64,000 nucleotides of DNA from Candidatus Omnitrophota bacterium (GTDB taxonomy: Bacteria; Omnitrophota; Gorgyraeia; B26-G9): the NCBI GenBank assembly GCA_018817165.1, contig JAHITY010000099.1, positions 391 through 64,390 of the forward strand, in the 5' to 3' direction. Within the stretch, counting starts at the first letter, position 1; the number at the start of each line of letters is the position of its first letter. Of the stretch, positions 1,979 through 17,990 are shown in pieces. The position numbers and the translations under genes are program-made. The notes below the pieces were generated by a model. It saw only the letters and a program-made list of their open reading frames with translations, did no database searches and was not told the origin of the DNA.

Positions 1979-3037
1979 ATGGCTAAAAAAACAAGACTCA
2001 ACGTTCTGGACTTATTCTGCGGAGCTGGAGGATTTTCCGAAGGATTCAGGCAGTCGGGATACAACATACTGTCGGGAATTGATAATGATAAAAATACACT
2101 TGATACTTTTGCCAGGAATTTCCCTAAAGCGGTAGCGATCCAAAAAGATTTATCTGAGGATAACTTTTCAGGCATGGATAAGATTATCAATGAGCAGATT
2201 GATGTTATTATTGGTGGCCCTCCATGTCAGGGATTTTCAGTAGCAGGGAAAAGATTGAAAGATGACCCCAGAAATATTTTGTATAAAGCATACTTGAATC
2301 TTATCAAACATTTTAATCCAAAAGCGGTTGTTATTGAGAATGTCCCGACAATTTTAGGGCTTTATGGCGGTGAAATTGGAAGGCAGATTGTCGAGGATCT
2401 CGAACAGCTAAAATATAAAGTTAAAGTTCACAAAGTGATTACTTCAGATTACGGCATCCCTCAAACGAGAAGGAGAGTTTTTTTTGTGGGATTGCATTCT
2501 AAAAAAGATTTTTGTTTCCCGGAGGGGAGATATATTAAATCTCCGGTTACATCGGCAATGGCTATTTCAGATTTGCCGTTGCTGAATGGCTTTCTTGGAG
2601 AGTTACAGCAAGAATATCCTTCAAAACCCAAGAATGAATATCAAGCCTCGATGAGAAAAAAATCCCGATATTTATGGAACCATCAAGCAGTCGAACATAA
2701 GCAAAGAACGATTGATATAGTTAAGATGGTTCCAGATGGTGGAAATTATAAGGACTTGCCGGAGCATTTATGGGCAACAAGAAAAGTGAATATTGCATGG
2801 ACTAGGATGAATAGTGAAAAACCATGCTTTACAATAGATGCTGGGCATAATCACCATTTCCACTACAAAGCCAATAGAGTTCCTACTGTTCGTGAATGCG
2901 CGAGAATTCAATCATTTCCGGATAGATTTATTTTTTATGGAAACAGAACGAGCCAGTACAGACAGGTGGGCAATGCTGTGCCTCCTATGATTGCTAAAAT
3001 TCTAGCAACTTCTCTAAAAAAGGTAATTAGCTTATGA
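1979..3037 (+). CDS. DNA (cytosine-5)-methyltransferase (M1)
   Basis: Motif I FCGAGG, motif IV GGPPCQGFS, motif VI ENV, motif VIII QTRRRVFFVG, C-terminal RECARIQSFPD...YRQVGNAVPP. Confidence 0.92.
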   Translation: MAKKTRLNVLDLFCGAGGFSEGFRQSGYNILSGIDNDKNTLDTFARNFPKAVAIQKDLSEDNFSGMDKIINEQIDVIIGGPPCQGFSVAGKRLKDDPRNILYKAYLNLIKHFNPKAVVIENVPTILGLYGGEIGRQIVEDLEQLKYKVKVHKVITSDYGIPQTRRRVFFVGLHSKKDFCFPEGRYIKSPVTSAMAISDLPLLNGFLGELQQEYPSKPKNEYQASMRKKSRYLWNHQAVEHKQRTIDIVKMVPDGGNYKDLPEHLWATRKVNIAWTRMNSEKPCFTIDAGHNHHFHYKANRVPTVRECARIQSFPDRFIFYGNRTSQYRQVGNAVPPMIAKILATSLKKVISL

Positions 3038-4440
3038 GTATAGTGTTTAATCCCGAAAAACAGTATCGATGTACAATTATCAGAGGTAAAGCTCAAAATG
3101 AGATTGATGACCTCTTGCCTGCGTATGCGAAAGTTATAACTGACATATGCCCATGCGAAAAAAGTATTTTTATTGAACTTTTCGATAAGGCGATAGTTAA
3201 ATATCTTTATTCCCCCACTCAAAAAACTATAGCAAATCATAGAACGGAGATTGCCGGAAAGCTTTTCGGTATGTGGTGGGAAGATGAGAATGGTGTTGTT
3301 TACGCCTCTGAGAGGACAGTAAGATTGATGGAGAGTCAGGATAATCCAGAATTCTTTAAAGATGTAATAACTAAAATGCAATTCCCAAATGGTATGGATA
3401 AAATTCAAACAACTCTTGATAGAATAAAACACTCTATTAATATCAGACCTGTTTCCTATATTCTGAAAGTGTTGCTATTGTCCGAAGAACAGGGATTCGC
3501 ATTAACGAAAGATGAGATCGCTTACTATATTCTGAATAGTTTGGAAGTTCTGCAAGGTAAAGTTTCTCCTGAATTAGCAGTGAGCAAAATTATCGATAGG
3601 AGGAAACGAAAAATATTTAAAAGAGTGGAATATCCAGGCAAACAAGGTTCTTATTGCATGCAACATATTACAGAGCTTCTAAATATTATAGAGTTGGCGA
3701 ACCTTATACGTCATGAGCGCACAAAAAAAGCTATTATTGTAAGGCTGAATAGGAGAGAACTTTCTGTAATTAGCTATTTTGCAGAAAGTGCGATGGATGT
3801 CCCGGATTTCAATGTGTATTCCTATAACCTAGACGATTCCGAACAGCGTAAAAAACTTTCATATGATTGGATTAAGTACTATGCATCTTCTGATGATAAG
3901 GCTTCAATGTTTGCTACTTCAGTAGAAAGTCTTACTAAGGCTGAGGAAAAAGAAGAGCCTTGGCACATACCTGGCCCACTTGGTATTGATACTACTGTTA
4001 TAGGCGAAGAAGGAGAAAGAATTGTTTTTGAACGAGAAAAAGGGAGAGTTCGTTTGTTTAATGAGCGACTTGTAAATAAGGTTATTTATTTTGGTAAACA
4101 GAGAGGCCTTGGTTACGATATTAGTTCTATAAGAGCAGTCCTCGGGCCTTCAGCTGAGCATGCGATATATATTGAAGTGAAAAGTACAAAAAGAGTAACG
4201 AGACCAAGTAATCCATTGAAAGATCAATTTGATTTGACTCGGAATGAATGGGTTGCCGCTGAGCAACATAAAGATAATTACTTTGTGTATAGGGTATATA
4301 TAACTAATGATGGAATTTTTGTATTCATTATGAATGATCCTGTTGCTCTAAGAGATACAGGTGTTATATATGCAGAACCATTAAAATATCATGTTGAATT
4401 TGATGAAAAGGCTGGAAGGTTACAAGAATGGAAAAATTGA
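3034..4440 (+). CDS. Candidate restriction endonuclease with a C-terminal PD-(D/E)xK / DUF3883-like nuclease domain
   Basis: 468-aa ORF lies between two C5-MTases with overlapping starts and stops; C-terminus has GYDISS...IYIEVKST (D...E-x-K) followed by NEW...YFVYRV, a typical DUF3883/PD-(D/E)xK pattern. Confidence 0.55.
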   Translation: MSIVFNPEKQYRCTIIRGKAQNEIDDLLPAYAKVITDICPCEKSIFIELFDKAIVKYLYSPTQKTIANHRTEIAGKLFGMWWEDENGVVYASERTVRLMESQDNPEFFKDVITKMQFPNGMDKIQTTLDRIKHSINIRPVSYILKVLLLSEEQGFALTKDEIAYYILNSLEVLQGKVSPELAVSKIIDRRKRKIFKRVEYPGKQGSYCMQHITELLNIIELANLIRHERTKKAIIVRLNRRELSVISYFAESAMDVPDFNVYSYNLDDSEQRKKLSYDWIKYYASSDDKASMFATSVESLTKAEEKEEPWHIPGPLGIDTTVIGEEGERIVFEREKGRVRLFNERLVNKVIYFGKQRGLGYDISSIRAVLGPSAEHAIYIEVKSTKRVTRPSNPLKDQFDLTRNEWVAAEQHKDNYFVYRVYITNDGIFVFIMNDPVALRDTGVIYAEPLKYHVEFDEKAGRLQEWKN

Positions 4441-5399
4441 AAGCTATTTCACTGTTTTGCGGTTGTGGAGGGGCTGATCTTGGACTTACCGGAGGTTTTA
4501 CCTATTTGGGGAAGTGGTACCCTTCAACCGGAATAAATGTTATTCATTCTTCTGACATTGATGCAAAAGCAGTAAAGACTTATAACTCAAACTTTAAACA
4601 TGAAGCCCATACCGCAGATGTTCACGATCTTGTTTTTAAACGCTATTCTGCTGATATTGTAATGGGTGGATTTCCATGCCAGTCTTTTTCAACCGTTAAT
4701 CCTACCAAGAGGCCGGAAGATAAAAAGAATCAGCTGTTCTGGCAACTGGCCAGAGTTGTTGAACAGGTTTATCCCAAAGTTTTCATAGGTGAAAATGTAA
4801 AAGGGTTTTATACCCTGAAGAATGGGTTTTATTTTCATCTTGCAAAAGAAGAATTTGAACGGATTGGTTACAGGGTGTATCACCGTCTTGTAAACGCAAG
4901 CGATTTTGGAGTACCACAAAAAAGAGAACGTCTTATTATTATTGGTGTTAGGAAATCGGTTAAAAACAATTTTAGTTTTCCGGATCCATCACACGGAAAT
5001 GGTAAATATTCTAAAGCAGTTTTAAAACAGGTTATAGATAGTCTGGAGCCAGAAAATCCAAAATATTATTTTTCAAAAAGAGCTGTAGAAGGGGTAAAAA
5101 AAGCAAAACCCAATATGAAAAGAGCTTTAGCTCAGAATTTAGATGATCAGTGCCTGACTATTACAAGTCATCTTGCGAAGGTCAGTTTGAATTCAAGAGA
5201 TCCTGTTCTGCTTGTTGATAGAGAAAAGGAACTCTATAGGAGATTCACTCCGAGAGAAGCGGCTCGGATTCAATCGTTTCCTGATAATTTTATGTTTGAC
5301 GGAAGCGAAGGAGACGCATACAGGCAAATAGGCAATGCTGTACCTCCGGTTATGATGTGGCATCAGGCACGAGCATTAGTAAGGCAGATTTTTAAGTGA
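4428..5399 (+). CDS. DNA (cytosine-5)-methyltransferase (M2)
   Basis: Motif I LFCGCGG, motif IV GGFPCQSFS, ENV, QKRERLIIIG, C-terminal REAARIQSFPD...YRQIGNAVPP. Confidence 0.92.
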   Translation: MEKLKAISLFCGCGGADLGLTGGFTYLGKWYPSTGINVIHSSDIDAKAVKTYNSNFKHEAHTADVHDLVFKRYSADIVMGGFPCQSFSTVNPTKRPEDKKNQLFWQLARVVEQVYPKVFIGENVKGFYTLKNGFYFHLAKEEFERIGYRVYHRLVNASDFGVPQKRERLIIIGVRKSVKNNFSFPDPSHGNGKYSKAVLKQVIDSLEPENPKYYFSKRAVEGVKKAKPNMKRALAQNLDDQCLTITSHLAKVSLNSRDPVLLVDREKELYRRFTPREAARIQSFPDNFMFDGSEGDAYRQIGNAVPPVMMWHQARALVRQIFK

Positions 5400-5481
5400 C
5401 AGCATGTATGGTAAAGGACAAAAAATACTTAGAAGGCAAGAGTCCGCATAGGGACAAAAAATTTGGAATTTTGCGAAGACT

Positions 5482-5806: not shown

Positions 5807-6877
5807 ATGAAAATCGTTCTTGATACAAATATTTTACGTCAAGATTTTTTTCTTAAATCCAATAAATTTGAAATGTTAATCGATTTTATTTCTAAAACAG
5901 ATTACCAAGTTGTTTTTCCAGAGGTAGTATATAAAGAGATTGTTGCCCTATACAAAAGAAATCTCTTGGAAAAGCACGCTAATCTTGTCAAGAGCTATAA
6001 TGACTTTAAAAAGGATACGGCTGTTCCAGTTGAGTATAAAATACCAGAATTAGAAATTGATAAACAAGAAAGTGAATTTGTTAATAATATAAAAAATATG
6101 CTCAAGGTTAAAGATGTTGTTCCGTTGAATAATAATCACCTGCCTTATCTTGTAGAAAAAGCCATTAATCGTATCCATCCGTTTACAGAACATAGGTCTG
6201 AATTTAGAGATGCATTAATATGGTTATGTGTCCTTGAGTTAGCAGAATTGGAAAAAGAAAAGACGATATTTTTCATTTCCGCTAATACCAAAGACTTTGC
6301 TGATGGCACAGTTAATTTGCACTCAGAACTCTTGAAAGAATCGAACGCAAAAGGAGTGTCTGTCCAGTATTTCTCATCGGTAGATGCTTTTCTAAAGACT
6401 AAGGCAATAAAGATTGAGTTTATTACTAAAGATTGGATTGAGAGCAACTTAAACCTTAAACAGCTTGAAAATGAAATAGTTTCTAAAATAGAAATGTATG
6501 CTGATCGGTTAGATGAGTTAGCAAAAGATGAAGCCGATAATTTTGAGGAAATATTACAAATTGTTCAATGTGCACAGACTTGGGTGAACGACTTTTATAT
6601 ATATGAGATGTCCGATGGGACGCTTAGGATAGAGGTAACACTTGAGAGCGAGCTTGAGGTTGAATATGCTACGCATGAAGTTAGAAAAGAAAGTTGGGAT
6701 ATGGACTATGTCTTTGATTATTCCACAGGAGACTATGACATGGAACCTGTTTATAAAGAAAAGTTATTAAAAAAAGCTGAATCTAAATGCTTCTGTCCTA
6801 TTGCAGTGATTGAAATTCATGTTATTGTAGAAAATAGTAAAATTAAGTCTGTTGAATTGGTTGACTGTCATATTTGA
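5807..6877 (+). CDS. PIN-like domain protein (DUF4935-type)
   Basis: N-terminus MKIVLDTNIL...VVFPEVVYKEI is typical of PIN / DUF4935; strong AAGGAGG ribosome-binding site at 5795-5801. Confidence 0.5.
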   Translation: MKIVLDTNILRQDFFLKSNKFEMLIDFISKTDYQVVFPEVVYKEIVALYKRNLLEKHANLVKSYNDFKKDTAVPVEYKIPELEIDKQESEFVNNIKNMLKVKDVVPLNNNHLPYLVEKAINRIHPFTEHRSEFRDALIWLCVLELAELEKEKTIFFISANTKDFADGTVNLHSELLKESNAKGVSVQYFSSVDAFLKTKAIKIEFITKDWIESNLNLKQLENEIVSKIEMYADRLDELAKDEADNFEEILQIVQCAQTWVNDFYIYEMSDGTLRIEVTLESELEVEYATHEVRKESWDMDYVFDYSTGDYDMEPVYKEKLLKKAESKCFCPIAVIEIHVIVENSKIKSVELVDCHI

Positions 6878-7277
6878 TACTGCTTAAAACCTTTTGAATA
6901 ATCCTTCCTTGTCCTTCACTTGATAATTTTACAAGTGACCGCAATTTCCGCTCAGTGATATATCGTTTTGGCATGGGATCGCCCATTTTCTCGATTGTTT
7001 CTTTAACTTCTGGGGCAAGTTTTAACAAAGCGATGAAGTGGTTAACAGTTACTCGGGAAACGCCGATTTGTCGGGCAAGGTCAGACTCATTTCGGGCTTG
7101 ACCGGATTCAATCATGAGTTTGTATTGTTTAGCTAAGTATATGGGATTGCGATAATTATGTTGGGGTTTAATTTTTAAAGTAGTTTTTGTCTCAAGAATA
7201 ATCGTAAAGGAAAAAGTTCTACGCTCCAGCCACTTCGGGGAGCCAAATATTACACTGAGCGAACTCTTGGTTAACAC
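6843..7277 (-). CDS. Small ParB/KorB-like HTH protein (N-terminal CTPase/nuclease domain absent); start codon uncertain (track uses GTG)
   Basis: DLARQIGVSRVTVNHFIALLKLAPEVKETI matches the ParB HTH consensus (LAe.lGkSRs.VanlLRLLkLpeevq); paralogous to the minus-strand ORFs at 10130-10447 and 13047-13502. Confidence 0.5.
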   Translation of the reverse strand: MLTKSSLSVIFGSPKWLERRTFSFTIILETKTTLKIKPQHNYRNPIYLAKQYKLMIESGQARNESDLARQIGVSRVTVNHFIALLKLAPEVKETIEKMGDPMPKRYITERKLRSLVKLSSEGQGRIIQKVLSSIKYDSQPIQQT

Positions 7278-7408
7278 CGGGTTCGCTCTTTGTGTTTCTA
7301 TACAAAAAATTTCCTACCCTACAAATATTTCCATTGACATATTGCAAAAGTGTGTTAATTTATACATGTAAGATAAATATCTGAAAATACTCTCAGGAGG
7401 TATCTACG

Positions 7409-8200
7409 ATGAATAAAGATACAATAAGCCGTTTAGGGCCTATTGAGGCACAAATAATAGCGCGATTGACGTATGAAGCAAAAACTATTGTTTCAGCAGA
7501 AGAATTAGATACTCTCTTTAAACTCTCCGCTGTAGACCGCGCCAAGGTTGTTTCGCGGCTCAAGAAGAAAAATAGATTAGTTCCTATTAAGAGAGGACTT
7601 TATATTTTTTCCCCCCTTGAAACAGGTCCTTCAGGAAGGGGTATTGATGAGATGTTGATCCCGCCTTTATATTTACCCAAGAATAATTACTATATCGGGT
7701 ATTCGACAATGTTTAATTATTATGGATTTAGTGAACAGATATTCCAAACACTGTATGTTTTGAACACATCATTCAATAAAAAGAAGATTATTTGTGGTAT
7801 TTCATTTAAGTTTTTGAAGATTCCAGAAAATAGAATGTATGGCATAAAAAAAATAGAAGTAAAGGGGCGCGACATTATGGTCAGCGACAAGGAGAGAACG
7901 CTTATTGATTTATTGTACTTTAATAAACCAGTTGGGGGCATCTCTGTTGCGGCAGAGATTTTTATGGGAATTGTTCAGAAAAAACAATGTGATTTAAAGA
8001 AACTAATCAGCTATGCGAGCAAATTTCCGAATGTAACTATTAGAAAGAGGATAGGAGTTTTATTGGAAACTACGGGCATAAGTGAATTGGATTTAAATCC
8101 TTTGAACAAGTCTATTAAAAATACGGCAATTAGTTCTTTGGGGGAAACACGAAAAGGAAAAATAAATAAGAAATGGAGAGTTATTATTAATGCTTCATAA
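7409..8200 (+). CDS. AbiEi-like antitoxin / transcriptional regulator (type IV TA), copy 1
   Basis: 263 aa, N-terminal wHTH-like region; overlaps the downstream DUF1814 nucleotidyltransferase gene by 11 nt; paralog at 10816-11613. Confidence 0.6.
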   Translation: MNKDTISRLGPIEAQIIARLTYEAKTIVSAEELDTLFKLSAVDRAKVVSRLKKKNRLVPIKRGLYIFSPLETGPSGRGIDEMLIPPLYLPKNNYYIGYSTMFNYYGFSEQIFQTLYVLNTSFNKKKIICGISFKFLKIPENRMYGIKKIEVKGRDIMVSDKERTLIDLLYFNKPVGGISVAAEIFMGIVQKKQCDLKKLISYASKFPNVTIRKRIGVLLETTGISELDLNPLNKSIKNTAISSLGETRKGKINKKWRVIINAS

Positions 8201-9068
8201 AGATAAAGAGAAATTTTCTGACATGATTTACCGGGTTGTAAAACAGACGGGTTTCCCCGCGCAGCTTCTTGAAAAGGATTATTATCTGACGTTGATTCTT
8301 TCCAGGATCAATGATTTGTCCGCAGACCTTATTTTTAAGGGCGGAACGTGTCTGAATAAGGTTTATTATGTCTATTATCGATTAAGCGAAGATTTGGACT
8401 TTAGCATGAAACTGCCCGAATATACAACAACCCGCGGTAATCGGCGTAAATGTATTCAGCAGGTAAAGGATAATATTGAGAAATTCGTTGAACAATTCGG
8501 ATTGAAGGTCGACGATAAGGAAAACCCTGGACGTAATGAATCAAAGCAGTATGTTTATAATTTGTTTTATCAGTCCGCGCTGCGGCCACAGGAGATGAGA
8601 ATTAAATTTGAAATTGGCCTCAGGTTTAATCCGATTCTTGAAACTGAAATAAGGGAAGTTAAACACAAATTTTTGCATCCTTTTACTAAAGAACCATTAT
8701 TTGACGGCGGTAAAGTCAATTGTCTATCGTTAGAAGAGATTGTGAGTGAAAAGCTCCGCGCCGCAGCTCTTAGGTTGACTATTGCTCCTAGAGATTTCTA
8801 TGACCTCGATTTTATTATCCGGCAAGGTTTTAACTTAACCGATAAAAAGGTTCTAAATCTATTGGTTAAAAAGATAGAAGAAGACAACGGCGATCCCGAT
8901 CTGGCAAAGTATAAGATAAACCTCGGGCGTTCAGATAAAGAAATCAAAGACATGAAATCACGGATTGAAAATGAGCTGTTTGATGTATTGACAGTCAGAG
9001 AACGGGAAAACTTTGACTTGGATACGGCGTTGGAGAGGATAAATAGCGTTATGGGGGAAGTTGCATAA
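8190..9068 (+). CDS. AbiEii/AbiGii-family nucleotidyltransferase toxin (DUF1814), copy 1
   Basis: LIFKGGTCLNKVYY...YRLSEDLDFSM is the hallmark GGTaL...R(F/L)SEDiD motif of DUF1814 nucleotidyltransferases. Confidence 0.8.
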   Translation: MLHKDKEKFSDMIYRVVKQTGFPAQLLEKDYYLTLILSRINDLSADLIFKGGTCLNKVYYVYYRLSEDLDFSMKLPEYTTTRGNRRKCIQQVKDNIEKFVEQFGLKVDDKENPGRNESKQYVYNLFYQSALRPQEMRIKFEIGLRFNPILETEIREVKHKFLHPFTKEPLFDGGKVNCLSLEEIVSEKLRAAALRLTIAPRDFYDLDFIIRQGFNLTDKKVLNLLVKKIEEDNGDPDLAKYKINLGRSDKEIKDMKSRIENELFDVLTVRERENFDLDTALERINSVMGEVA

Positions 9069-9392
9069 ATTTAAAAAATTAATGGTGGCAGTATGACAGG
9101 ATGTCTAGAAAAAAACTAAAATGTCCCTAATGATGTAAGAAATATATTTTGGCAAGTATATTAGAGATTAAAATATGTGTGATTTGAATAAGTTAGACAA
9201 GATCATTCCCGCAATAAAAAGGGGGAAATGTGTATTTTGGATTGGTTCTGGATTATCTTGTATGATAACAAATTTAAAAACATGGCTAATGAAATATGTA
9301 ATATTTATGAAAAAAACAACGTTCACTTTTTAAGGGCTTTATGGGAAGAGTGGAATAATAAAAAAGAAAAGGAAATTAGTTAAATAATAGTT

Positions 9393-10133
9393 ATGCTCCC
9401 AATTTACGACTTAAATAAAATCAAATTTGCAATCGATGAAGAGACATTTCAACGCGCGGCTGGATTATATGAAAGTGGGAAAGTGACTGAAGTTGAAGAG
9501 CTTGGTGGAAGTTATACCGCTGTTGTTCTTGGAACAAAGCCATATCGTGTTTCGGTATCTGCTCACAATTTTAAGCATGGACATTGTACTTGTTATCTTG
9601 GTGGGAGGGATAGGATTTGTAAGCACATGGTTGCTCTTGCTCTATATGCGGCGGTGGATGGTCAGCCACTGAAAAATGAAGATAAACAACAGACATCAAA
9701 GATTACATGTAGTGACAATAGGGATATATTAAATAAAGCTAATTTAGCTGCGGTTAAGAAATCGATCACTGATTCAATGCGTTACATTAAACCATACAGA
9801 GGTCCTTCGAATAAATGGTTCGCGAATCAGGATTCACTTCAGGAAGGATGCAATAGATTAAGGGAGATTCTTTATGATTTGCCGGTTAATCGCCAATCGG
9901 CTGATCTTTTGGTTAAATTGCTTTTGCGGTTGGAGAAGAAGCTAAGCGCAGGTGGGGTGGATGATTCTAATGGTATTGTGGGGCAATTAGTTGCTGAAAT
10001 AGTGGCTTTGCTTGAAAAGTTTGCCCAAATTGTTCCGATTTGTATCAGTTCGTTTAAACCGCTCTGTGGAAAAGAATATTGTTTCGGTTGGGAAGATTCT
10101 CTTGTTCGTATTTATGATGAAACAATTTCCTAA
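9393..10133 (+). CDS. SWIM zinc-finger domain protein
   Basis: YRVSVSAHNFKHGHCTCYLGGRDRICKHMVALALYAA matches the SWIM signature C-x-C-x(n)-C-K-H-x2-A. Confidence 0.7.
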   Translation: MLPIYDLNKIKFAIDEETFQRAAGLYESGKVTEVEELGGSYTAVVLGTKPYRVSVSAHNFKHGHCTCYLGGRDRICKHMVALALYAAVDGQPLKNEDKQQTSKITCSDNRDILNKANLAAVKKSITDSMRYIKPYRGPSNKWFANQDSLQEGCNRLREILYDLPVNRQSADLLVKLLLRLEKKLSAGGVDDSNGIVGQLVAEIVALLEKFAQIVPICISSFKPLCGKEYCFGWEDSLVRIYDETIS

Positions 10134-10447
10134 AAACTATTGGTTCCAGTAGTATTTCTCAAGAACCGCTCCGTAATCATCTTTTCCTTCCCATATTCTA
10201 AAATATACTTCTGCTGATCCTCCGGTAGTTTTAGGAGGTTTAATATCTGGCATACCCGTACCCTTGAAATCCCTAGTTTTTGGGCTAGTTGGTTTTGGTT
10301 TAGCCATTCTTCCTTCATAATTCGTGTAAACTCTAGTGCCTTTTCAATCGGATTTTCATATGCTTGTACGTACTGATAATGACGCATTTCTTTCTGCGAA
10401 ACAATATGACTTTTTGGTATAAAATCCGGCTTTTTACCACGAAACAA
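10130..10447 (-). CDS. Small ParB/KorB-like HTH protein, copy 2; likely true start is the internal ATG at 10387
   Basis: LAQKLGISRVRVCQILNLLKLPEDQQKYILEYG is a ParB-type HTH; about 93% nucleotide identity to 13090-13500. Confidence 0.5.
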   Translation of the reverse strand: MFRGKKPDFIPKSHIVSQKEMRHYQYVQAYENPIEKALEFTRIMKEEWLNQNQLAQKLGISRVRVCQILNLLKLPEDQQKYILEYGKEKMITERFLRNTTGTNSF

Positions 10448-10815
10448 AGTCTTCGTTTTATTCTGCCATTTGTAAAAGTATGGGATTTCTTCACTTACTA
10501 CTTTTGAATTTGTTCGCTGTGAGTCTCGTTCGGGGAGCCAAATTATAAACCTTTGTAACGCAATAAGTTACAAGGGTTTTATTTTGCCAGTTTGGACACG
10601 TAGCGAACAAAGTATTGATGCCACTGAAGTTGACATCAGAATAGGAGATGGTAGCATAAGTTTCTTCGACGGTAGTTTGAGATATTTAGTTTGTATTTCA
10701 TCAGAGATGTGAATTTTTTAAGCATTTTTAATAATATGGTTGACATCGGGCAATAATATGGTAGTATATTTGATGTATGAAAATTATATATAGGTAACTG
10801 GAGGAGTTACTTGCT

Positions 10816-11613
10816 ATGAAGAAAAAAACAATAAGTGCCTTAACCCAAAAAGAGGCTGAAATTGTTGCCCGTTTATCATATGAGGAAAAGGATATTGTAA
10901 CGGCGCAAGAACTGGATTCTTTTTTGCCTGGCGATTTTCCTTATCGAAAACAGCTGGTTTACAACCTGAAAAAAAAGGGGATTTTAACCCCCATTAAGAG
11001 GGGAGTATATATCTTTGTACCTTTAGAATCTGTGCCGACCGGACGCAGGGTAAGCGAATTCTTAATTCCTCCCATTTTCTTTCCTAAAGATAACTATTAT
11101 ATCGGTTATTCGACCATGTTTAATTATTATGGGTTTACTGATCAGCAGTTTCAAATTATTTATGTGCTTAATACCACTCGTTGTATGAAAAAGACGATAG
11201 CGGGGGCATCATTTAAATTCGTAAAAATACCGTATAATAGGTTTTATGGTTTAGAGAAAATAAGCATAAAAAACAAGGAGATAATTATAAGTTCAAAAGA
11301 GAGGACATTGATTGATTTAATTTATTTCAACAAACCTGTTGGCGGCATCGAAACAGCGGGTGAAATTCTCAGGCGGTTTGTAACGGAAAAGAAATGCGAT
11401 ATTAAAAAGTTGATTGAATATTCTGTTCAATTTCCCGGGGTTAAGACAAAAAAGGTGATAGGTCTTAATCTTGAAAAGGCTGGTGTTTCAGATAACTTAT
11501 TAAAACCGCTGGAAAAAAGTGTGAAGAATACTTCACTCATCTCATTAGCGTATTCTCGTAAAGGGACTCTTAATAAAAAATGGAAGATTATTATTAATGA
11601 TACACAGAGATAA
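10816..11613 (+). CDS. AbiEi-like antitoxin / transcriptional regulator, copy 2
   Basis: 265 aa, co-linear homolog of 7409-8200 (e.g. YIGYSTMFNYYGF shared); overlaps the downstream toxin gene. Confidence 0.6.
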   Translation: MKKKTISALTQKEAEIVARLSYEEKDIVTAQELDSFLPGDFPYRKQLVYNLKKKGILTPIKRGVYIFVPLESVPTGRRVSEFLIPPIFFPKDNYYIGYSTMFNYYGFTDQQFQIIYVLNTTRCMKKTIAGASFKFVKIPYNRFYGLEKISIKNKEIIISSKERTLIDLIYFNKPVGGIETAGEILRRFVTEKKCDIKKLIEYSVQFPGVKTKKVIGLNLEKAGVSDNLLKPLEKSVKNTSLISLAYSRKGTLNKKWKIIINDTQR

Positions 11614-12472
11614 AGACAAATTTTCTAAATTAGTTGATCGTATTGCTTCTTTAACCGGATTTTATGCCCCATTGATGGAGAAGGACTATTATCTGACGCT
11701 TTTTCTTTCTAAAATAAATGAGCTTTCGGATAATCTTATTTTTAAGGGCGGGACCTGCCTTAATAAGATTTACTATTCTTATTATCGGTTAAGTGAAGAT
11801 TTGGACTTTAGCATGCGCCTTCCTGATTATACGACTACTCGCGATAATAGGCGCAAATGCATCCAGCCGGTAAAAGACAATATAGAAAATTTTGCTAAGC
11901 AGTTTGATTTAAAGCTTGAAGGCGCGGAAAACGCGGGGAGAAACGTATCAAAGCAATATGTTTATTATCTCGCGTATGATTCTGTCCTCCTGCCATCACA
12001 ACAAACAATAACGTTCGAAGTGGGATTAAGGTATAATCCAATTTTAAATCCAGAGTTAAAAGATGTTCAGCACAAATTTCTTAATCCTTTTTCTGATAAA
12101 CCCTTATTTGATGGCGGAAAAGTGAAGAGCATGTCTTTGAATGAAATCGTGAGTGAAAAACTCAGGGCTGCGGCCTTGAGGCAAATAATCGCCCCGCGAG
12201 ATTTCTATGACCTCGATTTTATTATCCGGCAAGGTTTTAACTTAGCGGATAAAGAGGTTATAAAGCTATTCGTTAAAAAGATTGAGGAGGACAATGGCGA
12301 TCTTGATCTGGCAAAATACAAAATCAACCTCGGTCGCTCAGACAAAGAAATCAAAGACATGAAATCACGTATTGAGAATGAGTTGTTTGATGTGTTAACA
12401 GTTAGCGAGCGGGAAAACTTTGACTTGGATACAGCGTTGAAGAGGATTAATGAAGTAATGGGCGGTATTTAA
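11597..12472 (+). CDS. AbiEii/AbiGii-family nucleotidyltransferase toxin (DUF1814), copy 2
   Basis: LIFKGGTCLNKIYY...YRLSEDLDFSM motif; the C-terminal ~110 aa are nearly identical to copy 1. Confidence 0.8.
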   Translation: MIHRDKDKFSKLVDRIASLTGFYAPLMEKDYYLTLFLSKINELSDNLIFKGGTCLNKIYYSYYRLSEDLDFSMRLPDYTTTRDNRRKCIQPVKDNIENFAKQFDLKLEGAENAGRNVSKQYVYYLAYDSVLLPSQQTITFEVGLRYNPILNPELKDVQHKFLNPFSDKPLFDGGKVKSMSLNEIVSEKLRAAALRQIIAPRDFYDLDFIIRQGFNLADKEVIKLFVKKIEEDNGDLDLAKYKINLGRSDKEIKDMKSRIENELFDVLTVSERENFDLDTALKRINEVMGGI

Positions 12473-12490
12473 TTAGGAGCATTATGTAGT

Positions 12491-13084
12491 ATGTCTTTTA
12501 TTCGAATAACCCAAAAACTCCAAAAAGAGATGGGAATAAAAAATGCTGATTTAGTATCGCAGGGAAAGTCCACAGAGGCTTTTCATGAATGGTACGCCCA
12601 TGTTTTTATTCTTGCTCGGAAAAAGCAAGTGATTTTTGTTGAGACGCAGACGTTGTTTTCCTTTTGTATTGAGAATGTTAACCTAAAAGATATTCGAGAG
12701 CGGTTGTCGGGACTTTTTGAGAAAGGTTTCGGGAAGGCTCTTTTTGTTGAGGGAGTAAGCGCTCTAATTATGTCAAAGGTGATGGAGATTTGTCGAGGGG
12801 AATTAAAATTTGCAAAAACTGAGAGCCGAATGACGATAGGGGCGATGAATGAGTTTGTTAAGCAACATAAATTTTGTTTTTCGTATAAAGATAGGGCAAT
12901 TGAGACGCAAGACCAGATGAATCGGTATATGCCGATGCGGGGATTTCCGGATGGATCCAAGGGTTATAAATTCCCCATAGAGGTTTTTGCTAAAGTAGTT
13001 AAAGATCAGTTTGATTTAGATTTCACTCCGCGCAAACAGGACTTTTTTAAGAAAATTTATTCTGATAGGGCGTTAGAGATTTAG
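12491..13084 (+). CDS. Hypothetical protein; third gene of the AbiE cassette 2, in the position taken by the SWIM gene in cassette 1
   Basis: 197-aa ORF with good coding features; no motif recognised. Confidence 0.35.
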   Translation: MSFIRITQKLQKEMGIKNADLVSQGKSTEAFHEWYAHVFILARKKQVIFVETQTLFSFCIENVNLKDIRERLSGLFEKGFGKALFVEGVSALIMSKVMEICRGELKFAKTESRMTIGAMNEFVKQHKFCFSYKDRAIETQDQMNRYMPMRGFPDGSKGYKFPIEVFAKVVKDQFDLDFTPRKQDFFKKIYSDRALEI

Positions 13085-13502
13085 ATGGAAACTCCTCTTT
13101 TCGCAATTGCCTTTCCGTAATCATCTTTTCCTTCCCATATTCTAAAATATACTTCTGCTGATCCTCCGGTAGCTTTAAGAGATTTAATAGCTGACATACC
13201 CGCACACTTGAAATCCCTAGTTTTTGGGCTAGTTGGTTTTGGTTTAGCCCTTCTTCCTTCATAATTCGTGTAAACTCTAGTGCCTTTTCAATAGGATTTT
13301 CATATGCTTGTACGTACTGATAATGACGCATTTCTTTCTGCGAAACAATATTACTTTTTGGTATAAAATCTGGCTTTTCACCACGAAATAAAGTCTTCGT
13401 TTTATTCTGCCATCTGTAATGGTATGGCAATACATCAGTTACAACGCGTGAATTTGTTCGCTGTGAGTCTCGTTCGGGGAGCCAAAAAATCAGAGAGTCC
13501 AA
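13047..13502 (-). CDS. Small ParB/KorB-like HTH protein, copy 3 (track start is TTG; likely true start is an internal ATG)
   Basis: LAQKLGISSVRVCQLLNLLKLPEDQQKYILEYG; near-identical to the copy at 10130-10447. Confidence 0.5.
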   Translation of the reverse strand: MDSLIFWLPERDSQRTNSRVVTDVLPYHYRWQNKTKTLFRGEKPDFIPKSNIVSQKEMRHYQYVQAYENPIEKALEFTRIMKEEGLNQNQLAQKLGISSVRVCQLLNLLKLPEDQQKYILEYGKEKMITERQLRKEEFPSKSLTPYQNKFS

Positions 13503-13818
13503 AAGGGCTCTCTTTTTTTGTCCGCGAGAACTCGAACCTCAAAAAAGGGTATTAGGGGAAAAGACTGTTTTCCCCTATCCCGAATGGGGAATATTTCTCT
13601 GGGTTAGCATCGGGACCCCGAAGAGTTTCTTTGGGGAGTTACTTCATTCGGGGTCGGCGTACTGGAACTTCTCGCGCAAGGAAGGGGTATCCAAGGGGAA
13701 CTGAAAGAGTGCACCTTTAAGGAGTGAGCGGACCTGTTTCTCAAGGGAGCGCTTGTCCCGCCGTATTTTGGCGGGGACACGACAGGTTCGGCGAAGCGAA
13801 AGTCCTCGCGGGGGGAGC
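13474..13818 (+). repeat. Structured ~345-bp repeat, copy 1: GGGGAGCCAAAAAA box, terminator hairpin (CAGAGAGTCC-AAAA-GGGCTCTCT-T7), then a GC-rich element with a closing helix (CCGCGAG...CTCGCGG), a variable middle and a conserved 3' block with hairpin GTCCCGCC-GTATTTT-GGCGGGGAC
   Basis: Direct repeat of 18131-18444; the 3' ~125 nt are nearly identical and the closing helix covaries between copies. Confidence 0.7.
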
Positions 13819-14000: not shown

Positions 14001-17000
14001 ATGAGAAAGAAAAAAAGTATCTATAAAATAATAGTCAATATTATTATATTAGCACTTGTGCAGGTATTAGCATTTTCTAATTCTGCATGGGCTCTTGAAG
14101 CTTCTTTGCAAAAAAACAGAGATACTTTATCTCCGCAAATCCAAACAAGTCTTCCATTGATTCAAAATGCCTATAGTTTTTTAAAAGCAAATAAAGAACA
14201 GGGGAATACTCTTTTCTTGCGCACAGAGGCAAGTATTGAAAAAACGCCAAGTGAGTTAAGAAAGGACTTACTTGAGCTTATGGAATTTCTTGGTAAAAAA
14301 GATTTTAAAATTCTTATAGATATAGCTTTTAAAGATAAAGTGCTAACTCAAGATCAATATGAAGTTTTGCTTTATTGCTTAAAGCAAGGGGCTGTATCTC
14401 TTGAAAAAATAGATAGGACTTTTTCACAGCAAAGAAGGGTTGATATTACTACTGTGACCAGGTGGCTTGTAGGCACAAGTGAACAGGGAAGAAAGGAAAT
14501 CGGGGCATATCAGATAATTTATGAGGACGCTTCGCCATCTCTTAGGGAGAAAATAGATCAAAAGCTGGCGGTTTATATTAAAGAAAATATATTTGATTTC
14601 TTCTTGAATCATATGGATGCTGAAATTAAAAATGTCATGGAAAAAGCTATTGAAAACTGGCAGGGTGAAGAGGTTGAAAAAGAAATTATTAGGATTAAGC
14701 TAAGCAATCCTGGTGTTGCATGGAAAGATATATATGAGCATGAAAATGTGAACTTAAAAAAAGGCAAATTTTATAAGACCCTTAAGCGTATAAAAAAGAA
14801 TTTCAATAAAGCTATTGATAATGAGGGAACTGTAATTATTGAAAAAATAATCATAGAAGAAAGCCCTCGAGCATTGAAATATCTTGCAGGTGATCTTATG
14901 GAATTAAAGACGGAATTGCTTGATGTAATCGAAACATCAGAAAGATTAAAAGTAAAAAAAATGGATGAAGAGGAAAAAAGCTTTGTGCTTAGAATGAGTT
15001 TGTTTGAAGGTGAAAAACATAGAGCAATCGATAAGATAAATAAATTTTTTCTGGGCAGATCACAGATGTTCTTGAATGGAAGAACTCTGGAGGAGAATTT
15101 TTATGAAGGGGCAAAGAAAATAAAACAGTTTTTATTGCTGCCTGGAGGGAAATATTTATGCTTCTTTGAGCCTAAAGATGAAATGATCAATAATTCCTTT
15201 GAAAAAAATAATCTTGTTTTTGCTGTGCTAAATTCAAGCTCTAAGGCAAAAAGAATTAATTTAGATAAATATATTATTAGTGGAAAAAGCTTGAGTTTAG
15301 GAGGGAATTTTGTCTGGAACCAGTACAAGATTAATTGCTCAAATTTTCAATCTGCAAATATTGAGTTTCGGGTTGAAAATGATATCCCACGCTTTATTAA
15401 ATTATTGCAAAATAAAGAGGGGCAACAGATCAGAGATAATAAAGGAGAGCCATTAGTAATCGAAGTCTTTGATATGTTTGGACAGAAGGTGTCAGTGCGG
15501 CGTCAGCTTGCGGACAAATATTTTTTAAAACTAAAGCTGAATGATAAGAAAATTCGTTGTTCATATAATGAAGCTGAAAAAAATGTGCATGAGGCGATTG
15601 TTGATCTAAAGAGAATCAGTATTGATCTTGATTCTTGGCAGTTTAAGAAAAAACTGCGTGAAGTAAAAAAAGCTTTGTGGGTTATAAGAGGAGATCTTAA
15701 GGGTAAGGAGCAAGAAACAGCGAGGTTTATCTGTGATATGGCAGGCAGAGATGATCTTTTTGAAATACTACAGAATATTTCGATGAAGGGAATGTTTAGA
15801 TCATATTTAACTTTTCAATCAGCTTTTGATGCTTATATGGCTCGGGATAAAGATAAAAGACATTTTGACAGCCTTAACTGCAGTAAGGCGAAAGGCGGAG
15901 ATATTACTTTGCTTGATGCGGTAAGAAATTATGGGATTTTAAAGCGTAAAATAGAAGCTGAATATAAAGATGTGCATGAAGCACATAAAGAATTTATGTT
16001 TATGGATAAGAAAGATATTTCGTATGTGCAGCTTTCCATGAGAAAAGACGATGGAGGCAATCCAATGTTATTAAAAGCATTTTATAAATTTCGCCAGGAA
16101 CTAAAAGATATATATGGTTTTACTTTGCCTGATAATACACATAAAAGAAAAAGTAAAAAGGAAGTTCAAGCCTTTCTTGATAATATTCCGGAGCGAGAGC
16201 AGACTCCTAAAAAATTGAAAGAAAATAATCTTTGGTGGGTTTATAATGGAGCAAAATATTATAAAATTGTATTGCCAAAAGAAAGAGATTTTATAGATAA
16301 TACAGGATATGATAGCTATAAAGAAAGAATTAATAATAGAAATAAATATCAAGAAGTGGACATGTTTGAATTGTGGCATAGCATGGAAACGGATCAGGAG
16401 GCAAGGAATCAGTTAATTGAATATTTTATGCCGATGATAATAGATACTGTTGAGGATTTTAATGGTCGAAAAGGAAAATATATTACAGAACATTCCCAGT
16501 TTTATCTGGATGGCGATATTAGTAGGGCGAGTGTGGCAATGATTGAGGCAATTGATGACTGGCATCCTGAGATGGATATGATGTTAGATGGTTTTGTTAA
16601 GGATCGGATTATCTCAGCGTTTAAGAAAAGTATAAATGAATTTTATAAAGATAAAAGAATAATGCAGTCATCGAATACGCCTAAAGGGAATAAAGATGGG
16701 AATTATGCAGGTAAAAGTGGTCCTTTTGGCAATGGGAGGATTAATACTCTTGATGATAAATTTGAAGCAAATACTGTTGCTGCTGATGATGCATTCGATA
16801 GGGTTCAGCGTATGGAAAGGGCAGTTGCCGGCATAGGTAAAGGGGATTACAGCTTCTTAGTTGGTAGTGAATTTGAAATCAATGAATCTATGCTTATACC
16901 CAAAATTAGAAAACAGCAATTTGCTGAAGAACTGCGCAGTTATCTGTTAAAGCGAGGTGTCCTTGAAAATATTTCAGGTAAATTTGCTATTTGGGTTATG

Positions 17001-17990
17001 GGCAGTATGGGAAATATCGGGCTTGCTCGAAAAGGAGACAGCGATGTTAATCTCATAGTGCTTATGCAGGCAAGCAATGGCCAATGTAAAGAAGCTGTTT
17101 GGAGTCTTGAGGCGCTGATCGGTACAGGAGAAATATTTGAGGGTAATGATGAAAATTTTATTTTAGAAATCGGAAAAAACGGGAGCAGACAGGAGCTGGA
17201 TTTTTATGCTCCGCAATTTGTTTCATTGCTTGAGAAATATGAGGTAGGAATAAATGGTAAAGGAGCTGCTTCTATTGAGGTGGTTTCCACAAATGCAGCG
17301 GGCTATGGAGATAATCGGGCATTGAAGCGGGCGCGTTTTCATGTGGTTGATGATATTACCGGGATGGGTACCAATGGGATATTGGTATTGGAATCTGATG
17401 AAGGGATAGCCCAAGAACTTAAACAACAAGTCAGAGACAGGTTTGTTGATGATTTTGAGTATCATATTGATTTTGCGAATGAGTACTTAATTTATTTTTT
17501 TGCAGAGCAAGTGGAAAAACTAAAATCAACGATTGATAAGAATAAAAAGGTTGAATTACCTTTAGAGCCAAACGTTGAAATTCAAGAAGAGGCTTCTGAG
17601 GAATCTTCCATATTTCAGAAAGCAGATTCGCCTAGAAATAGAGGCTTTTTTCAGGATAAGGTCAGGCTAGAGGTGTTTAATGGGTTTGTATCGATAAGAT
17701 TAATTGATCTTATCGAAGGCGGCGTGATGGCTTTTAAAGATGAGTGGCGGCATATGCTAACTGTATTTGAAGGAAAAAATATTTTTGTGGATGACTATCT
17801 TAAAACAGATAATGTAGACCCCGGTAAAGAAGAAGCGATTGAAGCGTTAAGTGATGAATTATTGATTTATCTTCAAAAAGAGATTCAGCAAATGTCTGGT
17901 CATCATGAAAAAGGGGGGCAGGGTTGGACATGCAGCAGCTTTGACTTTGAAATGTTAAGAGATAATGCAGAAGTAAAATCAGCAATATAA
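14001..17990 (+). CDS. Giant (1329-aa) signal-anchored, Lys/Glu-rich protein with an embedded minimal nucleotidyltransferase (Pol-beta superfamily) motif
   Basis: N-terminus MRKKKSIYKIIVNIIILALVQVLAFSNSAWA (signal peptide or anchor); about aa 993-1015 WVMGSMGNIGLARKGDSDVNLIVL fits hG[GS]-x10-D-x-D-h (GlnE/GlnD/CD-NTase-like); AT-rich and Lys-rich composition; strong TTGCAA-N17-TATACT promoter at 13868-13896. Confidence 0.55.
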   Translation: MRKKKSIYKIIVNIIILALVQVLAFSNSAWALEASLQKNRDTLSPQIQTSLPLIQNAYSFLKANKEQGNTLFLRTEASIEKTPSELRKDLLELMEFLGKKDFKILIDIAFKDKVLTQDQYEVLLYCLKQGAVSLEKIDRTFSQQRRVDITTVTRWLVGTSEQGRKEIGAYQIIYEDASPSLREKIDQKLAVYIKENIFDFFLNHMDAEIKNVMEKAIENWQGEEVEKEIIRIKLSNPGVAWKDIYEHENVNLKKGKFYKTLKRIKKNFNKAIDNEGTVIIEKIIIEESPRALKYLAGDLMELKTELLDVIETSERLKVKKMDEEEKSFVLRMSLFEGEKHRAIDKINKFFLGRSQMFLNGRTLEENFYEGAKKIKQFLLLPGGKYLCFFEPKDEMINNSFEKNNLVFAVLNSSSKAKRINLDKYIISGKSLSLGGNFVWNQYKINCSNFQSANIEFRVENDIPRFIKLLQNKEGQQIRDNKGEPLVIEVFDMFGQKVSVRRQLADKYFLKLKLNDKKIRCSYNEAEKNVHEAIVDLKRISIDLDSWQFKKKLREVKKALWVIRGDLKGKEQETARFICDMAGRDDLFEILQNISMKGMFRSYLTFQSAFDAYMARDKDKRHFDSLNCSKAKGGDITLLDAVRNYGILKRKIEAEYKDVHEAHKEFMFMDKKDISYVQLSMRKDDGGNPMLLKAFYKFRQELKDIYGFTLPDNTHKRKSKKEVQAFLDNIPEREQTPKKLKENNLWWVYNGAKYYKIVLPKERDFIDNTGYDSYKERINNRNKYQEVDMFELWHSMETDQEARNQLIEYFMPMIIDTVEDFNGRKGKYITEHSQFYLDGDISRASVAMIEAIDDWHPEMDMMLDGFVKDRIISAFKKSINEFYKDKRIMQSSNTPKGNKDGNYAGKSGPFGNGRINTLDDKFEANTVAADDAFDRVQRMERAVAGIGKGDYSFLVGSEFEINESMLIPKIRKQQFAEELRSYLLKRGVLENISGKFAIWVMGSMGNIGLARKGDSDVNLIVLMQASNGQCKEAVWSLEALIGTGEIFEGNDENFILEIGKNGSRQELDFYAPQFVSLLEKYEVGINGKGAASIEVVSTNAAGYGDNRALKRARFHVVDDITGMGTNGILVLESDEGIAQELKQQVRDRFVDDFEYHIDFANEYLIYFFAEQVEKLKSTIDKNKKVELPLEPNVEIQEEASEESSIFQKADSPRNRGFFQDKVRLEVFNGFVSIRLIDLIEGGVMAFKDEWRHMLTVFEGKNIFVDDYLKTDNVDPGKEEAIEALSDELLIYLQKEIQQMSGHHEKGGQGWTCSSFDFEMLRDNAEVKSAI

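Follow-up and report, generated by a model that had tools for sequence, protein, structure and literature searches.

Background

AbiE, known from Lactococcus and Streptococcus agalactiae and carrying a toxin of the DUF1814/COG2253 family, was described as a toxin-antitoxin (TA) system of type IV and has recently been proposed to belong to type VII. In the definition of Dy et al. 2014 (PMC3985639), AbiE is an overlapping bicistronic operon in which the antitoxin gene comes first. Its toxin, AbiEii, carries the nucleotidyltransferase (NTase) motifs I-II (hG[GS]x15DhD), III (KLxAaxxR) and IV (+DxxD) according to the same work. Nucleotidyl transfer to tRNA 3' ends has been reported for S. agalactiae AbiEii and for MenT toxins, and the position of a phospho-acceptor serine is taken here from bioRxiv 10.64898/2026.01.19.700257. 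We deal with two AbiE operons of an uncultured Omnitrophota bacterium. They lie, each with a further gene behind it, between positions 7,409 and 13,084 of a stretch of 64,000 nucleotides (the window: positions 391 to 64,390 of contig JAHITY010000099.1, assembly GCA_018817165.1). An earlier reading of these letters, the sequence-only reading, had taken them for duplicated pairs whose toxin genes were recently homogenised by gene conversion, and possibly for three-gene systems. We consider it probable that they are two canonical AbiE operons, each of which is the first cargo of its own integrase-less mini-island of about 3 kb, and that these mini-islands were stacked by site-specific accretion.

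Two AbiE operons of a known kind

In both pairs the toxin gene comes second, on the same strand, and overlaps the end of the antitoxin gene, by 11 nt (8190-8200) in operon 1 and by 17 nt (11597-11613) in operon 2. The two AbiEi genes are 3407 nt apart from start to start, so that the pairs and their spacing of about 3.4 kb are as the sequence-only reading had them. Both toxins match Pfam PF08843 (DUF1814/AbiEii). The PADLOC profiles match AbiEi over its full length in both cases (E 3.1e-47 for the second antitoxin; the other E-values are in Table 1) and AbiEii with E about 1e-36. Pfam AbiEi_1 reaches its cut-off of 22.2 bits in the second antitoxin as well (22.2 bits), and an N-terminal AbiEi_4 match stays under its own (22 and 19 bits versus 25). 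The motifs FKGG-x15-DLD, KLRAAALR (aa 188-195) and RDFYD (aa 201-205) are present in both toxins and are invariant in an alignment of 10 relatives. The aromatic position of motif III is Ala in the window toxins, and the phospho-acceptor position, Ser66, is serine in both when read against the report cited above. We identify the operons as AbiE because the Pfam and PADLOC matches, the overlapping bicistronic genes, motifs I-IV and the Ser66 position agree. As far as sequence can tell, these are two separate, canonical two-gene AbiE operons, ordinary and of a known kind.

Short direct repeats stand 5' of both operons (7305/7323 and 10730/10752). In operon 2 they are two AATAATATGGT repeats at 10730 and 10752, and a promoter-like site is found at 10740-10767. 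Repeat and promoter scans found no clear inverted-repeat operators 5' of either operon. NCBIfam gave no names for the AbiE, SWIM, DUF6933 or PIN_12 proteins of the region; homologues of the window genes carry the names Candidatus Omnitrophica or Omnitrophota. In ENA the window corresponds to contig k141_1220794 of assembly ERZ27247128.

The operons stand in a core-bounded array

The real repeat unit of this region appears to be a mini-island of about 3 kb, bounded by a core sequence and capped by a ParB-type helix-turn-helix (HTH) gene. It did not figure in the sequence-only reading. The 15-nt core, TTCGGGGAGCCAAA, starts at 7234, 10529 and 13473, i. e. it is present three times in the window, against 0.13 copies expected. 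These copies delimit two cassettes. Cassette 1 (about 7243-10537) runs from CCA and a hairpin through AbiEi1, AbiEii1, a 51-aa open reading frame (ORF) and the gene of a SWIM protein to a reverse-strand ParB-HTH gene (copy 2). Cassette 2 (about 10538-13481) is composed in the same manner of CCA and a terminator, AbiEi2, AbiEii2, a DUF6933 gene and a reverse-strand ParB-HTH gene (copy 3). All three ParB-HTH genes of the array overlap the preceding gene tail to tail, the first one with a PIN_12 gene (5807-6877), the second with SWIM and the third, by 38 nt, with DUF6933.

When ParB copies from the window and from related loci in other sequences (designated here by L-numbers: L011, L012, L017, L098, L101 and L102) are aligned, homology starts exactly at an invariant CTCCCCGA (plus strand: CGGGGAG). 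In the opposite direction, the core is followed by CCA in most copies and by TTA in three, and then by a terminator-like hairpin that differs from copy to copy; at the internal junctions L011b and L012b neither CCA/TTA nor a hairpin is found beyond the core. By its sequence, the hairpin at 7252-7293 would mimic a tRNA trailer with a terminator. The post-core hairpins at 10547-10579 and 13492-13513 are the two best terminator predictions of the region.

The 33 ParB codons after the core (LPERDSQRTNS...KTLFRG; 13380-13481 and 10436-10537 in the window) evolve as coding sequence, with 157/153/367 differences by codon position, and the same coding-like region is found in all six related loci of the alignment. 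We therefore set aside the idea that the part between core and HTH is a non-coding leader or an RNA structure, since the substitutions fall mostly in third codon positions and the peptide is conserved. ParB-HTH copies 2 and 3 (10170-10535 versus 13114-13479) share 93% nt identity over 366-373 nt, compared with 70% for the AbiE genes. There are two explanations: conservation is much stronger in the att-proximal backbone than in the cargo, or the backbone is undergoing homogenisation. The frame of copy 2 is open up to the core and has no start codon there, which suggests that this copy is probably decaying. For copy 3 there are 38 homologues, nearly all from Omnitrophota.

Internal ParB copies elsewhere are altered too. 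Those at L011:5626-6006 and L012:7865-8324 have an in-frame TAG where other copies have CAG, and the one in L012 also has a 72-nt insertion. Judged from these changes, they appear to be decaying.

Every ORF of at least 60 aa between 7.2 and 13.5 kb could be assigned, and no recombinase ORF was found among them. Neither a tRNA gene nor another known RNA was found at the core motif: ARAGORN gave no hit in the window or on the contig, and Rfam gave none in 5-20 kb at E<=1. A tRNA-Asn came solely from the related locus L098, described below. Past the last terminator, at about 13520-13545 on the minus strand, GAGGTTCGAGTTCTCGCGGACA resembles the 3' part of a further tRNA, which would be encoded on the opposite strand; neither ARAGORN nor Rfam called it.

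Related islands in other genomes

In L098 the gene order is tRNA-Asn(gtt), tyrosine integrase, HTH_17, cargo, ParB-HTH, and then the core with CCA and a terminator. The 3' acceptor end of this tRNA (15061-15132) is CGGGGAG, and the tRNA adjoins the Phage_integrase gene. L102 has the order integrase, AbiEi, AbiEii, AAA_15/DUF2813, DUF2130, STM3845, reverse transcriptase, ParB. Because of these two gene orders, the layout of the island family can be read as target end, integrase, cargo, ParB and core repeat. The window cassettes follow this layout without the integrase, and abiEi comes directly after CCA and the hairpin.

A unit of 3.27 kb, consisting of AbiEi, AbiEii, SWIM and ParB and having both ends on cores, is 98-99% identical between L011 (2734-6008) and L012 (4972-8326). 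Its flanks are unrelated (a HEAT-repeat gene versus TrkH/TrkA/ApbE), and the two loci come from different metagenome-assembled genomes. On sequence grounds this pattern looks like the signature of a discrete mobile unit. Also in L012 (4834-4983), a pair of cores, CGGGGAG at about 4834 and CGGGGGAG at about 4975, is separated by only some 135 nt. By eye, the stretch between them resembles a fragment of a tRNA, and it may represent an array unit that is empty or minimal.

How did two AbiE operons come to stand in tandem? In the N-terminal part of the toxin gene, nt identity is 0.89-0.90 between window toxin 1 (w1) and L010/L018 and 0.865 between window toxin 2 (w2) and L015, compared with 0.685 between w1 and w2. 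Here the two window toxins are no closer to each other than to random members of the family (rank 44 of 81). Local tandem duplication as the origin of the pair is rejected, since each copy has much closer relatives in other genomes, and for the same reason we read the tandem layout as a stacking of related islands.

A second tandem AbiE pair of the family is present in L051 (1097-5443), with toxins at 1097-1966 and 4571-5443, about 3.5 kb apart. The pairs are separated there by a DUF4143/AAA_14 ATPase gene, and no ParB gene was detected. The backbone of L105 is similar to that of the island left of the AbiE cassettes (see below); it consists of DUF5659, a primase, HTH_17 and a 583-aa serine recombinase beside miaB, and its DUF6933 gene stands after OLD, UvrD and PDDEXK genes.

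Table 1. Features of the AbiE array (positions in the window)
Feature	Position	Strand	Evidence and remarks
ParB-type HTH gene 1, 144 aa	6843-7277	-	Pfam HTH_ParB E 6e-9; last gene of the left-hand island
att-like core copy 1, TTCGGGGAGCCAAAT	7234-7248	+	CGGGGAG 7236-7242, CCA 7243-7245; left boundary of cassette 1
Hairpin GAGCGAAC...GTTCGCTC, then T-rich run	7252-7293	+	Inverted repeats, junction alignment; just 3' of core and CCA
AbiEi-1, antitoxin and regulator, 263 aa	7409-8200	+	PADLOC AbiEi E 1.2e-46; Pfam AbiEi_1 26.9 bits, over cut-off
AbiEii-1, nucleotidyltransferase toxin, 292 aa	8190-9068	+	Pfam AbiEii E 1.4e-30; motifs
Recombinant C-terminal segment of toxin 1	8790-9055	+	About 86% nt identical to 12197-12462; sliding identity and rank, maximum chi-square
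47-nt run identical to 12198-12244	8791-8837	+	Candidate recent micro-conversion patch; encodes motif IV and the next 11 residues
Small ORF upstream of SWIM, 51 aa	9228-9383	+	Found again on L002, an independent contig of 2.2 kb
SWIM zinc-finger protein, 246 aa, cargo of cassette 1	9393-10133	+	PADLOC PDC-S62 E 1.8e-16 over aa 5-100
ParB-type HTH gene 2	10130-10535	-	Pfam HTH_ParB E 5.6e-11; listed ORF 10130-10447, 105 aa
att-like core copy 2	10529-10543	+	Boundary of cassettes 1 and 2
Terminator-like hairpin after core and CCA	10547-10579	+	13-pair stem, then T run
AbiEi-2, 265 aa	10816-11613	+	Pfam and PADLOC; 57% identical to AbiEi-1
AbiEii-2, toxin, 291 aa	11597-12472	+	Pfam AbiEii E 4.7e-28; alignment
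DUF6933 protein, 197 aa, cargo of cassette 2	12491-13084	+	Pfam DUF6933 E 2.7e-30; PADLOC PDC-S63 E 6.9e-14
ParB-type HTH gene 3, 151 aa, TTG start	13047-13502	-	Pfam HTH_ParB E 1.7e-10; outermost copy
att-like core copy 3, TTCGGGGAGCCAAAA	13473-13487	+	Right end of the array
Terminator hairpin after core and CCA	13492-13513	+	Top-ranked terminator-like site

The toxins are mosaics of some age

In their N-terminal 180-190 aa the window toxins are 67-68% identical in aa and 69% in nt (68% in aa over codons 1-190, where 61-64% of the four-fold sites differ). In the C-terminal 95-105 aa or so, identity rises to 89-90% in aa and 83-86% in nt (89% in aa over codons 191-285 approximately, with 39-42% of the four-fold sites differing). 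The contrast described in the sequence-only reading is therefore real. Its N-terminal value of about 60% was too low, and its value of about 90% for the last 110 aa or so and the underlying DNA alike is right for the protein and too high for the DNA. Divergence along the genes is not uniform. The maximum chi-square test puts a breakpoint at nt 601 (codon 201; 8790/12197 in the window), with a mismatch of 0.32 to the left and 0.14 to the right (p<=0.003), and finds no such breakpoint in control pairs. In sliding windows, the rank of one copy among the relatives of the other jumps after codon 196 or so from about 12-80 to 1-4 (reciprocally 1-13).

The first 10 sequences suggested that purifying selection acts on the C-terminus throughout the family. 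This is rejected: among 82 unique relatives (3321 pairs) mean identity is equal in the two parts of the toxin (0.709 versus 0.712), and the excess of C-terminal over N-terminal identity in the window pair is among the highest 0.5% of values in 2420 family pairs whose N-terminal parts are similarly diverged. Because the C-terminus is not generally better conserved among these relatives, constraint does not account for the mosaic, and the pair is a true recombinant with its breakpoint near codon 200.

When did the exchange take place? A breakpoint at codons 184-217, with like mismatch levels, is also observed in the cross-genome pairs L010/L015, w1/L015, w2/L010 and w2/L024. Since copies from different genomes show the same breakpoint and mismatch levels, the exchange predates the genome of the window. 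The shared C-terminal segment is still 14-19% diverged in nt, and between the close orthologues w1 and L010 C-terminal divergence (0.20) exceeds N-terminal divergence (0.10). A recent conversion of the whole C-terminus, as the sequence-only reading had it, is thus rejected on account of the breakpoint common to cross-genome pairs and of the high synonymous divergence. From these comparisons the exchange is old and common to whole lineages, rather than recent and confined to the tandem copies.

There is one stretch for which a recent event can be considered. The 47-nt perfect run that had been noticed earlier is confirmed (8791-8837 equals 12198-12244; the string quoted at that time consists of its last 46 nt). 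No non-identical pair of the 10 aligned sequences has a longer run, and the orthologues of each window copy differ at 6-8 sites inside it. Run-length permutation gives it a p of 0.0013 when the whole gene is considered, of 0.018 when only the C-terminal part is, and of 0.008 for C-terminal third positions. With the run removed, the two window copies come only 3rd and 5th on each other's list of C-terminal relatives. It is plausible that the run is a short recent conversion patch laid over the old exchange, and it is the sole candidate for such a patch.

An unusual AbiEii allele was encountered in L017 (119-1318). At codon 231/232 a GIY-YIG domain of some 100 aa (Pfam E 4.4e-12) is inserted in frame, and the insertion site falls within the C-terminal segment exchanged between toxin lineages. 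The toxin gene 5' of the insertion is closer to window toxin 1, and the downstream DUF6933-ParB block is like that of cassette 2 (about 81% identity). A homing-type GIY-YIG element could drive the C-terminal exchange.

Third genes as probable separate cargo

The 246-aa product of cassette 1 has a CxCx8CxH motif (C-T-C-x8-C-K-H). Its match to Pfam SWIM (PF04434) is below threshold (E 0.061; 13.3 bits versus 19.6), and several homologues that are 65-74% identical carry a precomputed PF04434 match. The family has more than 1300 homologues, mostly from Omnitrophota. The PDC-S62 profile is 566 positions long, and the SWIM protein matches its N-terminal part only. The 197-aa protein of cassette 2 matches DUF6933 (PF22016) over residues 4-164 with 105.7 bits against a cut-off of 27, and PDC-S63 over nearly its full length. 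Thus the two pairs do carry different third genes, as stated in the sequence-only reading; the one that it called unknown belongs to a named Pfam family. A literature search for PDC-S62, PDC-S63 and DUF6933 found nothing, and the first two are computational candidates for which no published function was located.

We surveyed 88 loci with toxin relatives of 67-92% identity; in 55 of them at least 1 kb is available downstream of the toxin. AbiEi adjoins the toxin in 86 of the 88, which is every locus that holds upstream sequence. SWIM follows the toxin in three of the 55 (L011, L012 and L021, the last two being the same DNA) and DUF6933 in one (L017). A fourth copy of the AbiE-SWIM cassette, L020, ends inside SWIM and is outside the 55. 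The remaining downstream genes are unrelated and include TIM-barrel, RadC, DUF4143 ATPase, DUF1016 nuclease, helicase and other genes. Homology of the window to orthologous loci covers the promoter and the two genes only (7322-9044 with L010, 10730-12450 with L015) and stops just before the toxin stop codon. The SWIM gene begins 325 nt past the toxin stop, behind the small ORF; it has its own promoter-like site at 9093-9122 and is mostly met without AbiE, as in four other contexts. The proposal that three-gene systems are the rule is largely unsupported by this comparison, in which four of the 55 informative loci carry either third gene. Because AbiEi is adjacent in all loci with upstream sequence, homology is limited to the promoter and two genes, and the downstream genes vary, AbiE here is best read as a canonical two-gene module, with SWIM as independent cargo.

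DUF6933 deserves separate consideration. It could be that this protein, and not SWIM, is the true accessory of some AbiE systems, for example a nuclease-like effector or sensor co-transcribed with abiEii, so that cassette 2 alone would be a three-gene system. The gene starts 19 nt past the toxin stop in the window and directly follows two further, divergent AbiEii types in L017 and L104, at 21 and 62 nt, in three genomes altogether; this spacing counts against our view that it is unattached cargo. AbiE is immediately upstream in three of the five DUF6933 contexts sampled, and DUF6933 is more conserved (68-76% aa) than the AbiEi that accompanies it (about 55%). It is nevertheless absent beside the closest orthologue of AbiE-2 (L015, 92% toxin identity) and beside about 50 related AbiE loci. 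In L105 and L106 it is found without AbiE, after a PDDEXK nuclease gene in an OLD/UvrD island and after an HTH_25 gene, respectively. PADLOC treats the family as a single-gene candidate, PDC-S63. The AlphaFold model (pLDDT 86) is confident but has a weak RNase H-like match only (E 2e-3, TM about 0.45). An accessory role of DUF6933 in cassette 2, and with it a functional link between DUF6933 and AbiE, seems rather unlikely to us.

The two third genes were also met in other company. An HTH_25 gene overlaps SWIM on its downstream side in L110 (5001-6138) and DUF6933 on its upstream side in L106 (5531-6588), and in L108 (5001-7055) DUF6880 comes after SWIM. SWIM and DUF6933 may belong to related small modules; their PADLOC names, PDC-S62 and PDC-S63, are consecutive.

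Alternative explanations

Several observations weigh against the stacking of integrase-less islands at a tRNA-derived site. The exact repeat common to the array and the L098 tRNA is only 7 nt, with scattered T-loop matches besides. For the window array neither a tRNA gene nor a tyrosine integrase is on the contig, whose left end holds a large serine recombinase. A ParB copy abuts ordinary-looking genes in L011 and L012, so that integration may primarily have been aimed at the 5' end of a resident ParB-like gene instead of a tRNA. Six of nine ParB copies have no in-frame start codon 5' of the core, a stop being met 0-10 codons before it. The spacing of DUF6933 discussed above belongs here too. 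Excision of the cassettes, an empty site and any activity are putative.

A bolder explanation would go further. Omnitrophota might possess a cassette system not described so far, in which defence cassettes of about 3 kb, each ended by a ParB-type HTH gene that is coding from the recombination core onward, are captured, stacked and exchanged. A trans-acting integrase would do this at a site resembling a tRNA end, and the system would be functionally like an integron and built from island parts. Only the outermost ParB would be expressible in such a system, the inner copies being in decay. The C-terminal third of AbiEii would be a recombination joint, perhaps driven by a GIY-YIG homing element of the kind inserted in the L017 toxin, at which cargo such as DUF6933 is swapped between toxin lineages. 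We consider this combination unlikely.

A related suggestion is integron-like capture proper, with the ParB-HTH gene and the core forming the recombination site of a cassette and a single distant integrase capturing, excising and reshuffling defence cassettes of about 3 kb into arrays. Arrays of at least three core-bounded units with no internal integrase do occur in three genomes (window, L011, L012), an identical cassette stands in two contexts, two cores enclose the 135-nt mini-unit of L012, and internal ParB copies decay while the outermost is intact. Against this, neither an IntI-type integrase nor attI was seen, and single islands of the family carry their own integrase beside a tRNA in the classical layout of genomic islands. 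The cassettes comprise three to five genes with promoter-like and terminator-like sites of their own, and the repeated site mimics a tRNA end and is not an imperfect palindrome of the attC type. Such capture is quite unlikely in our opinion.

Least of all do we believe in a tandem duplication of a three-gene AbiE system, with obligatory SWIM or 197-aa protein, that diverged and then had its last 110 codons or so recently converted: the significant breakpoint at codon 201, the reciprocally best C-terminal similarity of the copies, the 47-nt run, the DUF6933 genes behind AbiEii in the window, L017 and L104 and the AbiE-SWIM block that moves as one in L011 and L012 would all fit, but it is made very unlikely by about 39% of four-fold sites differing in the supposedly converted segment, by the same mosaic in cross-genome pairs, by the C-terminal ranks left once the run is removed, by N-terminal parts no closer than chance, and by the rarity of the third genes and the separate promoter-like site and AbiE-free contexts of SWIM.

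Proposed mechanism

We return to the stacking of integrase-less mini-islands, which we prefer. The cassettes are bounded by direct repeats of an att core (CGGGGAG and CCA) that corresponds to a tRNA's 3' acceptor end. In complete islands of the family, a tyrosine integrase stands next to the tRNA and the ParB-HTH gene closes the opposite end. The array would then have been built by successive site-specific integration of related islands that lost their integrase, and not by local duplication. If this is correct, the cassettes would behave like cis-mobilizable elements (CIMEs) and could be moved only with an integrase supplied in trans.

In each operon AbiEi would serve as antitoxin and autoregulator and AbiEii as the DUF1814 nucleotidyltransferase toxin. 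By analogy with S. agalactiae AbiE, the toxin most likely adds nucleotides to tRNA 3' ends and halts translation during phage infection, and the cognate AbiEi would repress the operon and neutralise its own toxin. Insulation of the two systems from each other might be achieved through the divergent AbiEi proteins (57% identity), the toxin N-terminal halves and the promoter repeats. Through an old recombination, two toxin lineages that are otherwise distant would have come to share a C-terminal segment (codons about 200-290). A recent conversion between the co-resident copies possibly affected one patch of 47 nt. SWIM and DUF6933 would be separate cargo and candidate stand-alone defence genes, with DUF6933 perhaps preferentially linked to AbiE.

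Neighbouring loci

The island to the left of the AbiE cassettes contains a restriction-modification cluster (1979-5399 in the window), in which C-5 cytosine methyltransferase genes (1979-3037 and 4428-5399) flank a BpuJI-N/NOV_C endonuclease gene (3034-4440). The backbone of this island was found upstream of the window (L103:3-8402) and consists of a 527-aa serine recombinase at the contig end, DUF4145, Peptidase_M78 with an Xre HTH (ImmA/Xre-like), DUF5659 and a Prim-Pol/DUF5906 primase. The contig ends 2 nt past the serine recombinase gene.

Directly to the right of the array there is an ORF of 1329 aa (14001-17990), for which neither Pfam nor PADLOC gave a match with a meaningful E-value. 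It has the last att core on one side and a FUR gene (18534-18971) on the other; the L098 island of the same family also abuts a FUR gene. A further TA locus lies a few kb from the array (19974-21610), where a small ORF is followed by a HipA-type kinase toxin (HipA_C and Couple_hipA, 20315-21610).

Significance

The AbiE pairs themselves are ordinary, and the value of the locus lies in its context. In this uncultured phylum defence genes appear to accumulate as tiny units that have no integrase, are bounded by mimics of a tRNA end and are capped by a ParB-HTH gene. The same units ferry uncharacterised candidate defence genes, namely SWIM (PDC-S62) and DUF6933 (PDC-S63). If they can be mobilised in trans, the combination of core and ParB module would be a simple marker for new defence cargo in Omnitrophota metagenomes. 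The reproducible breakpoint beside motifs III and IV suggests a modular AbiEii, in which the N-terminal half diverges fast and the C-terminal domain can be exchanged. Such modularity bears on how cross-talk between co-resident AbiE systems is avoided.

Comparison with known systems

As TA systems, the window operons resemble the AbiE of Lactococcus and S. agalactiae in their overlapping bicistronic structure and in an AbiEi whose N-terminus is a winged HTH and whose C-terminal domain is AbiEi_1. Their toxins resemble known AbiEii in the motifs hGGx15DhD, KLxAxxxR and +DxxD and in the serine at the phospho-acceptor position. They differ from known AbiE in that two diverged copies stand 3.4 kb apart in one array, in the mosaic structure of the toxins and in the Omnitrophota host, and they are known here from sequence alone. 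The window promoters have direct repeats, while S. agalactiae AbiE has inverted repeats.

As an array, the locus differs from integrons, which are characterised by IntI, attI, a Pc promoter and promoterless single-gene attC cassettes: no IntI was found, and the cassettes are multi-gene units with promoter-like and terminator-like sites. It is closer to the tandem accretion of integrative elements and CIMEs, as reviewed for the ICESt1-related elements of Streptococcus thermophilus (PMC5704250). There too, units are bounded by att direct repeats, lack integration genes and are stacked at one site beside related elements. Unlike CIMEs, the window units are only about 3 kb long, end in a ParB-HTH gene whose conserved coding begins at the core, and have no conjugation or mobilisation genes, their mobilisation being putative.

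The tandem ssrA islands of Dehalococcoides (PMC3146451) offer another parallel. They are tandem islands downstream of a small-RNA gene with a short direct repeat of its 3' end, they combine a conserved backbone module with variable cargo, some of their units have no integrase, and a large serine recombinase is found at one edge (here the 527-aa protein at the contig end). Unlike in Dehalococcoides, the repeat in our case mimics the 3' end of tRNA-Asn, the related complete islands have tyrosine integrases, and the ParB-HTH module is distal to the integrase. Set beside these systems, the new element is the ParB-capped, core-bounded array of mini-islands, and it is a variant of known island accretion.

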